DNA from: Acidobacteriota bacterium
GTDB taxonomy: Bacteria > Acidobacteriota > Thermoanaerobaculia > Multivoradales > Multivoraceae
Assembly (NCBI GenBank): GCA_011525365.1
Contig: WTGQ01000002.1
Location: forward strand, 3,745,941-3,809,940
Reading direction: 5' to 3'
DNA length: 64,000 nucleotides
The position numbers and the translations under genes are program-made. Under the pieces are notes generated by a model. The model saw nothing but the letters and a program-made list of their open reading frames with translations, was not told where the DNA came from and ran no database searches. Below are positions 8,049 to 11,897 of this stretch, in pieces (within the stretch, counting starts at the first letter, position 1; each line of letters begins with the position of its first letter).

Positions 8049-11000
8049 CTAGCGTTCCGCCGGCAGACCTCGGCTCGCCACGACCTCAAGGCTGCCGTCG
8101 CCGGCGATCTCGAGCGCCTCGGTCACCGGCCGGCGCAGGATAGCCTGCACCTGTCCGGTCTCCGGATCGCGCAGAATGGCCAGCGGCAGGTCGGTGTCCT
8201 GGTCGAGGACGACCGATTCGTCGTCACCCAGAAGACTGATTCGCTCCAGGGCCCCCTCCCAGCTCACGGGGATCGAGAAGACGAAGCCGGAGCGCCCGTC
8301 GTCCAGGTCGGGCAGTTCCGGCATGTCGAATGGCAGCGAGAAAGCCACGCTCCCGTCTTCCGTCGTCCCCCTCAACAGGTAGTCGCGCCCCGGTGGAGGA
8401 AGGGACGTCAGGGCATCGGCGATCACCGCCGGCTCGAGGAACGGGTTCCCGCCGGCGTCCAGACCGCCCGACACAAGGAGGGACCGTCTCCTGGCGTTCC
8501 TGGCGTCCGGCCCATTGACCTCTCCGAACCAAGCCATGGCGCGGGTCGTACCGACGCTTTCTGACTTCACGCGGTGCCGAAGCGCGTTCGCCAGATGGTA
8601 GTCGCTGATCCAGTGGTTCCTGCAGTACGTCATCAGGTCCGGTGTGTACGGAGAAACGAGAGTCTTCGTATCGCGGTCGTATCCCCAGGCTCCGATCACT
8701 CCCGTCGGGTGGGGGTACCGAGGGTCGGGACCGGCAGCGCCCCCGCACGGTGCGTGGGACAAGCTCAAGTTGTGTCCGAGTTCATGAGCCACCGTTCGAG
8801 ACAGCGGCTGTGAAAAGCTCGACCGGCCCGGTACGTACGCTACTCCCAAGATCCCAAGGCGAACGGGCGCCAGCATGCCCATGTAGTAGCCGGGCCGCCC
8901 TTCCATGAGCCGGATCATCTCGGTCTCGCGAAGGATCGTGAGGGCGTTGTCGGTGGAGGAGAAGACCGGGTCGTGTGAGTGGACTTCCAGGCCGCCTACC
9001 GGGAGAAGCGTGCGAGTCTCCTTGAGCAGTGGATGCTCTTCGGGCGCAGCCGCCATCTCCTCCGTGATCTCCAGGATGGATCGGTCAGGATTGGACTCGT
9101 AGAGGAACGGAATCACTGTCAACTGGAAGTCCGGCAGGTCGACCACGTCCACTGCCGTCCGCCCGCGCTCCGGCAATCGCCGCCGGACCCCGGCACCGGC
9201 ACGTCCGCCCGGGTCGATCTCGATCACCATTTCCAGCCCCGGCCGGATCACACTGCCCGGTACGTCGGCGTTTGCGCTGCCGGTCAGGGAACCCTCGTCG
9301 ATCGCCGCTGGCACGCGCGCACTGCTCGCCGGAATGTCCACGCGATGTATCCGCGCATCGTCGACGTAGAACGTGGCCCGTACTTCGGGCACCCTCGAGC
9401 CGTCCCCGTTCTCCTGAGCCAGGAACACCCGAAGGAGCGCGGGCCGGCCCGCTATCAGAGGCACCGGAAACTCCCTCGATTGCACGGACTGGGTCAGATA
9501 CGCCTCGGCTGGTTCGCATCGGGCCAGCCGTTGAAAGGGAATCCCGCTGAGCCAAGCCAGCAACTCGGGATCCGGGGGCGCGCACAGGCGCGTACCTCCG
9601 GCCTTGAAGCTCGCCAGGTTGTCGAGGCGTGTGAGGCTCGCCGGCACGGGGCCGGAGAGCGCGGGATTGGCGCCGACCCGAAGATCGGTGAGGTTCGTCA
9701 ACGACCCGAACTCGTCCGGCAACCCACCCGACAGCGCGTTGCCGTCCAGATACAAACGCCTCAGTTCGCCAAGAGTCGACAACCAGGATGGGATCGAGCC
9801 CGTGAAGCCGTTGCCTCCGAGTTCCAGCGACGAGAGACGGGACAGGCTACGGAGTGTCCCGGGGATGGCGCCGCTCAGTGCGTTCCCCGAGAGTTGGAGG
9901 TTGCGGAGATTCTCCATGTCCCCAAGTTCAGCCGGAACTTCACCGATGAGATGGTTGGATATCAGATTCAACTGCAGTAGCCGGGAAAGACGTCCCAACT
10001 CGGCAGGAATCGGTCCACTCAGTTCGTTCCAACCGACCCACAGCCAAAACAAGTTGGCCAGATTGCCCAACTCCGGGGGTAACGTCCCGGTCAGATAGTT
10101 GGCCTCGAGCTCAAGCATCTCCAGGCCGATCAGACTTCCCAGTTCGGGGGGAATAGGTCCGGTCAATCCGCTTCCGGCCCATCGCAGCCGTTTCAGCTTG
10201 CCAAGCCGCGCGAGCGCCGGCGACAGGGGACCGCCTAACCCCGTCCCACTCAGGGTCAAGTACTCCAAATCTGTCAAGTCGAAGAACTCCCGCGGCAGAC
10301 GACCCTGGAGCAGCACGTTGCTCGAGAGGTTCAGGCGCTGCAGGTGCGCGAGTCCCCCCAGTTCCGGCGGGATCCTGCCGACCAGGAAGTTGCGCCTGAG
10401 GTTCAACTCAACCACATTGCCCGATTCATCCGTCGTCACGCCGTGCCATTCGCCGAGCGGCCTATCGGTCAGCCAGTTCGTATCGTCCGTCCAGTTCGGG
10501 CCGTTCGTCGCCTCGTAGAGGGCCGCCAGCGCCGCCCGGTCGGAGATCGAAAGGTCGCCTCCCAGGCACGGGAACGCTTCGCCATCGGCGACAGAGCGCC
10601 CGGTACTGACCCGGAACCACTCGAGTTCGTTGGACCGGGTGTCACGGATCGCGATGCGGAAGTCCGCGTCCGATGCGGCCCCGGCATACACCGTCCAGTG
10701 ACCCGTGGCCCTGCATGTGTTGACGACCCGGAGTAGAAGCTCCGAATGGCCGCTGGCGGAGGTGAACAGTCCCGCGGTCTCACCCAAGTTGACGGCCACC
10801 GTCGGCGCCGCCCAGTTCGGGCCGCCGGCTCTCGAATACCAGGTCTTCACCCGGAAGGCTCCCGTTTGCAGGAAGCACGTCACGCCGCCGCATGGACTGC
10901 CCGAGTCCATCCCGGGTCCCGCGGTCGCGATACCGGCATCGCCCGGCGCGCAGGAGAACGCATCGGCATCCGCGACGGAGCGCCCGGCCTTGACCCCGAA

Positions 11001-11897
11001 CCACTTGAGTTCGTTGGACCGCGTGTCCCTGATCGCCACACGGAAGTCCGCGTCCGATGCAGCCCCGGCGTACACTGCCCAGTAACCCGTTACGCTGCAT
11101 TGGTTGACGATCCGGACTAGAAACTCCGAGCTGCCACTGTCGGAGGTGAACAGTCCGGCGGAACCCCCGAGAGCGGCTCCGACGGCGCCGGCACTCCGGC
11201 CGGAGCCGCCATTGGAGTACCAGGCCTTGACCCGGAAGCGCTCTCCCTGCAGAAGACAGGTCACTCCGCTGCAGGAGGAAGTAGCGAGCGCCGTGGTCGG
11301 GTTGTCGCCGGCAAGCAGCTTGTCTCGCCCTTCCGTGATGAGTCGATCGGCCGCCCGCAGCGCCACCGGGACCGCTGGCCGCTCCGTCTTGAAGTAGTCC
11401 GCAGCCCTCTCCACACCCGCAACTCGATCAGCGATCCAGTGGCGGAAGCGCGAGGCGTCCCGGAACTGACCCAGGAAGTACTCCGCGATCGCGTGGGCGC
11501 CTGACTCCTCGGCTTCCAGGAAGAGCAGAACGCGGTCGCCCTCGGCAAGCATCGGCAGCCCCAAGGCAGACTGCCGCGCCGTCGGCACGCCTTCGTCTGC
11601 GTGCCGAACCATGATCGCGCTGCCGCCAACGAAGCCCTTCAGGACCTCCTCGATACCGAACAGATACTCCGTCGTCGGGCCCGTGCCCTCCCGCCCCGGA
11701 TGGACACCGAGCACCTCGCCGAAAACGATCAGCGGTGACCCGTCCACTAGGCTCTCGTCGGCCGACACGACGGCCTGCGAAGGTGCGGTCGACACGGTTG
11801 CCGCGAGGAGCAGCCCCGCGACACTCAGGACAAACGGTCCCCGACGACCGAAGCGACCGCATGAACGGCCCGACTCGAATCTGCCAAACGCCAGCAT
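8049..11897 (-). CDS. Secreted multidomain protein: two tandem Cys domains, LRR N-cap, ~10 plant-type leucine-rich repeats and a reprolysin-like zinc metalloprotease
   Basis: Signal peptide at the N-terminus. Two ~105-aa paralogous domains follow (GVTC[LF]LQ..RFRVK.WYS...ELL[VL]R[IV]VN.C..[15 protein letters not shown][VI][10 protein letters not shown].WF). Then an LRRNT-like cap ([20 protein letters not shown]...W.GVT) and repeats of L..L..L.L..N.LSG.IP..LG.L. The C-terminus carries [11 protein letters not shown], a metzincin/reprolysin-type zinc-binding motif. Confidence 0.8.
   Translation of the reverse strand: [1282 protein letters not shown]

Follow-up and report, generated by a model that had tools for sequence, protein, structure and literature searches.

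Three segments of a 64,000-nucleotide stretch from an Acidobacteriota bacterium (assembly GCA_011525365.1, contig WTGQ01000002.1, positions 3,745,941 to 3,809,940; hereafter the window) are copies of one cysteine domain of approximately 115 residues. This domain, which we call the module, defines an uncatalogued and very large domain family without a solved structural relative, and it has been amplified in Thermoanaerobaculia and shuffled onto many exported proteins. Two copies stand in tandem in a protein that also carries leucine-rich repeats (LRR) and a metallopeptidase-like region (protein A), and the third closes a smaller protein (protein B). We propose, with a probability of about one half, that the module is a disulfide-stapled accessory module binding or retaining exported proteins.

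All three copies are encoded on the reverse strand. Copy 1 (10935..11282, residues 206-321 of protein A, as delimited by hidden Markov model (HMM) envelopes and BLASTP) has cysteines at positions 209, 214, 267 and 316, and is separated by a linker of about 11 residues from copy 2 (10551..10901, residues 333-449), with cysteines at 336, 341, 395 and 444. Copy 3 (31601..31945, residues 262-376 of protein B) has cysteines at 263, 281, 323 and 374 and lies at the extreme C-terminus, the stop codon following two residues past its end. In BLASTP comparisons, copies 1 and 2 share 65% of their residues (E 7e-52), and copy 3 aligns over its full length with either of them at 23-25% identity (E 2e-6). 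A profile made from relatives of copy 3 alone, from which sequences like copies 1 and 2 were absent, still matches protein A in two domains (E 2.7e-15, calculated for a notional database of 1e6 sequences), and the homology of the three copies is therefore independent of the first alignment; the same match excludes chance similarity between them. A first-pass annotation, made by a reader who had the letters and the open reading frames (ORFs), had described a duplicated domain in protein A and a third copy in protein B. Its coordinates, sequences and homology were borne out, and the significance of the alignment held under both pairwise and profile comparison; the two conserved cysteines that it had counted turned out to be four per copy. 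An HMM of the three copies found no fourth one when the window was translated in all six frames. Nor is the tandem pair peculiar to protein A, since pairs and quadruplets are standard in the family; recent local duplication as the sole origin of the pair was rejected on this family-wide occurrence and on a DNA identity between copies 1 and 2 of only 77% across 330 nt.

The same annotation could not assign the domain to any named one, and our catalogue searches agree with it. Pfam-A returned single-member noise only for 28 isolated domains (E ≤ 10) and had no match to residues 205-450 of protein A (E ≤ 1), and among 64 full-length relatives no Pfam family occurred in more than 11 members, those found being partner domains. 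With NCBIfam, the window proteins gave only partial matches to LRR effectors and a weak choice-of-anchor-R match, none of them on the module, and the best value among 50 diverse domains was E 0.012, in 2 of the 50 members and to an unrelated model. Profile searches of the PDB sequences with hmmsearch, using two alignments, gave no significant match (best E 0.036-0.072). Protein clusters that contain the module are named 'hypothetical protein' or after a partner domain, such as 'ELWxxDGT repeat protein', and literature searches on sponge Acidobacteria proteins and on Ca. Multivorans gave nothing on the module. AlphaFold2 predicted an all-beta structure for copy 2 from 28 sequences (predicted local distance difference test score, pLDDT, 80; predicted template modelling score, pTM, 0.78), and nine strands with one short helix for copy 3 from 50 diverse sequences (pLDDT 96.2, pTM 0.88). 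The module is thus modelled as a self-folding, autonomous unit with a confidently predicted fold. Foldseek found no match for either model in the PDB at E ≤ 1e-3 (best template modelling score, TM, 0.33-0.35) and no significant match in BFVD (best TM 0.37), and we provisionally regard the predicted fold as new by comparison with these two collections.

The core common to the alignments reads SGL(L/F)WFF...N.E.LVKVLDGC..NG..WVF.A..T...(F/Y).L.V.D...G....(Y/H).N..G.......D..AF..C. Copy 3 represents a canonical 'LLWFF..NAEVLVKVLDGC' sub-type, and copies 1 and 2 a divergent 'ELLVR..C / YAGAASDA' sub-type, which elsewhere occurs as two to four tandem copies in other HExxH proteins, sometimes beside canonical copies in one protein. 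Four cysteines are present in 350 of 398 complete copies. In 231 of the 398, these are a first cysteine (C1), a second one in strand 1 ('LCL'), a third in the 'DGC' motif (C3) and a C-terminal fourth (C4), and in a further 119 the second is shifted to strand 2 ('MCY'), as in copy 3. C3 and C4 have been lost jointly, with C1 and C2 kept, in about 29 copies, which read 'DGR' and end at 'AF', and the reverse pattern of loss occurs in a single copy. Mean-field direct-coupling analysis of 662 unique copies (effective number 428) ranked C1-C2 as the top coupling and C3-C4 as the twelfth, and also recovered antiparallel strand pairings. Based on this joint loss and covariation, we infer two disulfides, one between C1 and C2 near the N-terminus and one between C3, in the 'DGC' turn, and C4 at the C-terminal end, a pattern that fits an extracytoplasmic protein. 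Seven polar positions are invariant or nearly so: N55, E57, K61, D64, N69, W73 and D111 in the numbering of copy 3.

The family is large and seems to have a taxonomic focus. Among 1.84 billion representatives of clusters at 50% identity, the profile of 28 domains detected 9,978 clusters at E ≤ 1e-3, 8,716 at E ≤ 1e-10 and 3,258 at E ≤ 1e-30. A scan of one genome per species yielded at least 506 confirmed stretches, and the best 80, from which the taxonomy was taken, all belong to metagenome-assembled genomes (MAGs) of Acidobacteriota, mostly Thermoanaerobaculia or Ca. Multivorans, with several loci per genome. Labels among these 80 are Thermoanaerobaculia, Ca. Multivorans/Multivoraceae, Holophagales, Vicinamibacteraceae and Acidobacteria. 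Further named matches are called 'hypothetical protein' or 'PKD domain-containing protein' and come from MAGs of Holophagales, Thermoanaerobaculia, Acidobacteria and unclassified 'bacterium'; single named exceptions outside the phylum are Solirubrobacterales and Aestuariibacter, both on short MAG contigs. Nearly all members that carry a name are Acidobacteriota, most of them of the class Thermoanaerobaculia. On present evidence, the module is centred on one phylum, the Acidobacteriota, and is not private to the genome of the window. The first-pass suggestion that it is specific to this lineage does not stand at the level of a genome or genus, given the 9,978 clusters, and survives as a focus on one phylum, seen in the best 80 genome matches.

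How the module is placed within proteins was seen in two samples. The top 150 representatives are biased to multi-copy proteins, because scores add over copies, and comprise 141 two-copy and seven four-copy proteins, with a median linker of 35 residues within tandem pairs; the module stands at the end of 113 and right after the N-terminus of 34. A less biased sample consisted of 76 loci of about 8.3 kb each from Thermoanaerobaculia genomes, originally chosen through the module. They hold 156 module-bearing ORFs, 136 of them with a single copy, and in 123 (79%) the module ends no more than 15 residues from the stop codon. It lies elsewhere in the other 33, in some cases at residues ~44-187 of proteins of 420-1200 residues. 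Pro/Asp-rich linkers of the PDPTPDP type are common ahead of the module, and there are stand-alone proteins that consist of a signal peptide and one or two modules (P0001, P0070, P0133). Across paralogues (34 ORFs, not selected by similarity), median identity is 56% for the module versus 41% for the attached N-terminal domain (N-domain), and this better conservation would fit a partner shared by all of them.

The module ORFs tend to lie together: 42 of the 76 loci hold two to four of them, all co-oriented and with none on the opposite strand, which indicates tandem gene arrays. Examples are loci L049, L052, L053, L055, L057, L045 and L048 from Thermoanaerobaculia MAGs, where most products have N-domains like that of protein B.

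A constant C-terminal module joined to variable N-terminal parts and encoded in gene arrays is also the pattern of secretion substrates, and the module could be a C-terminal sorting or surface-attachment domain, comparable to the C-terminal domain (CTD) of type IX secretion system (T9SS) cargo, that is recognised by an outer-membrane export or attachment machinery and perhaps later removed. The 79% of module ORFs that end with it, the 113 of 150 multi-copy proteins that do so, and its conservation above that of the cargo would all be expected of such a signal, and the module is comparable with the type IX CTD (Por_Secre_tail) in being all-beta, of broadly similar size and placed mostly at the very C-terminus of varied Sec-exported cargo. 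Yet about one fifth of the copies, both of those in protein A among them, lie internally or near the N-terminus, and tandem pairs and quadruplets, which a signal does not need, are common. A T9SS CTD is always last and in single copy, whereas the module stands elsewhere in 33 of 156 ORFs and commonly in two to four tandem copies. In Pfam, NCBIfam and the PDB, the module resembles no known CTD, neither in sequence, by CTD HMM, nor in fold, and its host phylum is Acidobacteriota, whereas T9SS is a Bacteroidota-centred system. We consider a sorting domain of this kind decidedly unlikely.

The partners of the module are diverse. Among 64 full-length members they include fn3 (11), reprolysin-like peptidases (about 10) and PKD (8), as well as subtilases (S8), M60, lactonase propellers, CARDB and Ig-like domains. 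In the Thermoanaerobaculia loci, 78 of 147 non-module regions resemble the N-domain of protein B, and another 37 are like that of protein A and precede a metzincin; FGE-sulfatase domains and alkaline phosphatases account for nine each, and TSP3 also occurs. At L034-L046 (OX638294.1, CATOTG01), at least nine paralogues have the module between a signal peptide and an FGE-sulfatase domain (PF03781) at the C-terminus. The FGE-sulfatase fold is what diversity-generating retroelements usually target.

With metallopeptidases and subtilases as frequent partners, and with HExxH proteins (P0052, P0054, P0055) and short fragments the only places where the sub-type of copies 1 and 2 was seen, one might think of a protease-associated pro-domain or folding helper that is removed on maturation, like the bacterial pre-peptidase C-terminal (PPC) domain (PF04151), another accessory beta domain that sits C-terminally, often in duplicate, on secreted proteases. 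We find this very improbable: the module has no match to PF04151, and most of its partners are not proteases, the commonest being the N-domain of protein B, with alkaline phosphatases, FGE-sulfatases and non-enzymatic domains besides.

The module often adjoins PKD and fn3, and its variable copy number and predicted disulfide stabilisation are what one would expect of a robust extracellular spacer. It might accordingly be an inert structural spacer or stabiliser without a ligand of its own, like many PKD, fn3 and Ig-like domains. PKD (PF00801 / PF18911) is likewise a beta module found outside the cell in secreted multidomain proteins, where it is often the immediate neighbour of the module, but PKD HMMs match the neighbouring segment and not the module itself, and Ig-like PDB chains reach a TM of at most 0.33. 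Spacers rarely keep polar residues as nearly invariant as the seven named above, a spacer is not needed at a terminus after flexible linkers, and stand-alone secreted copies exist. We regard a purely structural role as unlikely.

We favour binding or retention because of the terminal placement at either end, the flexible linkers, the tandem and stand-alone copies, the conserved polar residues and the conservation above that of the cargo. The module would be a mobile accessory unit, single or in tandem, usually at the very C-terminus and sometimes directly behind the signal peptide, on Sec-exported proteins whose catalytic or adhesive parts are unrelated to one another; by non-catalytic binding it would keep each of them attached to a target that they share. 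Candidate targets belong either to the cell itself (its envelope or exopolymer) or to a host or matrix (a glycan or protein); retained there, proteases, phosphatases and adhesin-like parts could work at a surface. Within protein A, this role would fall to a divergent pair between the N-domain and the LRR and M66-like protease regions, and in protein B to one canonical copy that closes a member of the commonest paralogue family. Carbohydrate-binding modules (CBMs), lectin-like modules and surface-anchoring repeats offer the nearest comparison: like them, the module is small, all-beta and predicted to be self-folding, and occurs at either terminus, singly or in tandem. Like CBM-type binding modules, it follows low-complexity Pro-rich linkers, is joined to many unrelated secreted enzymes and has stand-alone versions. 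It differs in that it resembles no solved CBM or lectin in sequence or fold and in bearing the putative two-disulfide staple. A ligand-binding role, which the first-pass annotation had also suggested, is our best guess; carbohydrate binding in particular, which that annotation had offered as an alternative, is so far unsupported.

Several points weigh against binding or retention. The predicted fold is unlike any known lectin, CBM or anchoring domain in the Foldseek comparisons with the PDB and BFVD, and the strong C-terminal bias would suit a sorting signal too. The margin by which the module is better conserved is modest, and the loci in which it was measured were chosen through the module itself; the signal peptides were judged by eye alone. 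More tentatively, as a possibility that we think less likely than not, the module may be both a new fold and a signature module of the Thermoanaerobaculia secretome. In that case it could define a new lectin- or CBM-like family by which symbionts fix their exoproteins either to the matrix of a sponge or coral or to the surface of the bacterium; alternatively, it could be the domain recognised by a surface-sorting pathway of Acidobacteriota that has yet to be described.

Protein A (8049..11897, reverse strand, 1282 residues) consists, in order, of a signal-like N-terminus, an N-domain of about 160 residues, the two modules, an LRR region and an M66-like zinc peptidase, as delimited by the ORF and Pfam matches, and its exact sequence is present on 13 contigs. 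The N-domain (11286..11771, reverse strand, residues 43-204) recurs in related loci, where this type is found upstream of metzincin-type proteases that likewise bear the module, and a search of PDB sequences gave no match to it. The LRR region (9588..10550, reverse strand, residues ~450-770) comprises a cap and plant-type repeats and scores above the cut-off of several Pfam LRR families (LRR_1 71.7 bits, LRR_8 68.6 bits, LRR_14 67.1 bits). It opens at 10350-10550 on the reverse strand (residues 450-520) with a plant-type cap and 24-residue repeats of the plant-specific type, and NCBIfam gives partial, below-cut-off matches to the Xanthomonas effectors XopAE, XopAC and XopL. The LRR of protein A is thus eukaryote-like, and the bacterium is probably a sponge or coral symbiont. 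The metallopeptidase core (8625..8837, reverse strand, residues 1021-1091) matches Peptidase_M66 (PF10462, E 2.4e-6) with 27.2 bits, above the gathering score of 20.6, over a match that spans only positions 180-252 of the 306 in the profile, and an HExxH-type motif lies at residues 1038-1048 (nt 8754-8786). The gene is co-oriented with, and flanked by, thrS and rpmI-rplT (8049-14055); infC, the usual occupant of the position between these genes, was not called there. The whole window has a G+C content of 69.5%, and owing to this, real genes are overlapped throughout by long ORFs of the opposite strand, such as the ORFs at 8979-9980 and 12292-14091 on the forward strand; these ORFs are compositional artefacts.

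Protein B (31598..32728, reverse strand, 376 residues) consists of a signal-like N-terminus, an N-domain of about 230 residues and the module, and its exact sequence is present on 11 contigs. Orthologues of copy 3 with 81-88% identity occur in Thermoanaerobaculia MAGs, and in related genomes the module is joined to this type of N-domain more often than to any other partner. Protein B had no Pfam match, and its N-domain contains the weak NCBIfam choice-of-anchor-R match mentioned above and gave nothing in the PDB sequence search. The N-termini of proteins A and B are signal-like on inspection, as the first-pass annotation had read them, and both proteins look secreted. Directly upstream of protein B, a gene at 32782-34449 on the reverse strand encodes a multihaem c-type cytochrome of 555 residues with many CxxCH motifs and faint MtrC/MtrF-like Pfam matches, and it is accompanied there by a gene for a cytochrome-c protein. 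Also adjoining protein B, at 30727-31536 on the reverse strand, is the gene for a 269-residue protein with a long Asp/Glu-rich tail, for which about 20 tandem copies of an 18-nt repeat (30730-31090) code. Across assemblies that have the rest of the locus in common, the length of the product differs (266, 212, 204 and 197 residues), and the repeat number therefore varies within the population.

Approximately ten thousand clusters, many of them from sponge-, coral- and soil-associated Acidobacteriota, bear a domain without a catalogue name. Once it is defined, much of what these organisms secrete could be annotated, and their exported proteases, phosphatases and adhesin-like proteins would be recognisable as members of a single functional set. 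Structural biology would gain a confidently predicted fold that lacks a solved relative. If the module does bind a polymer of the host or the envelope, or acts as a sorting tag, it would explain how uncultured symbionts position their exoenzymes.

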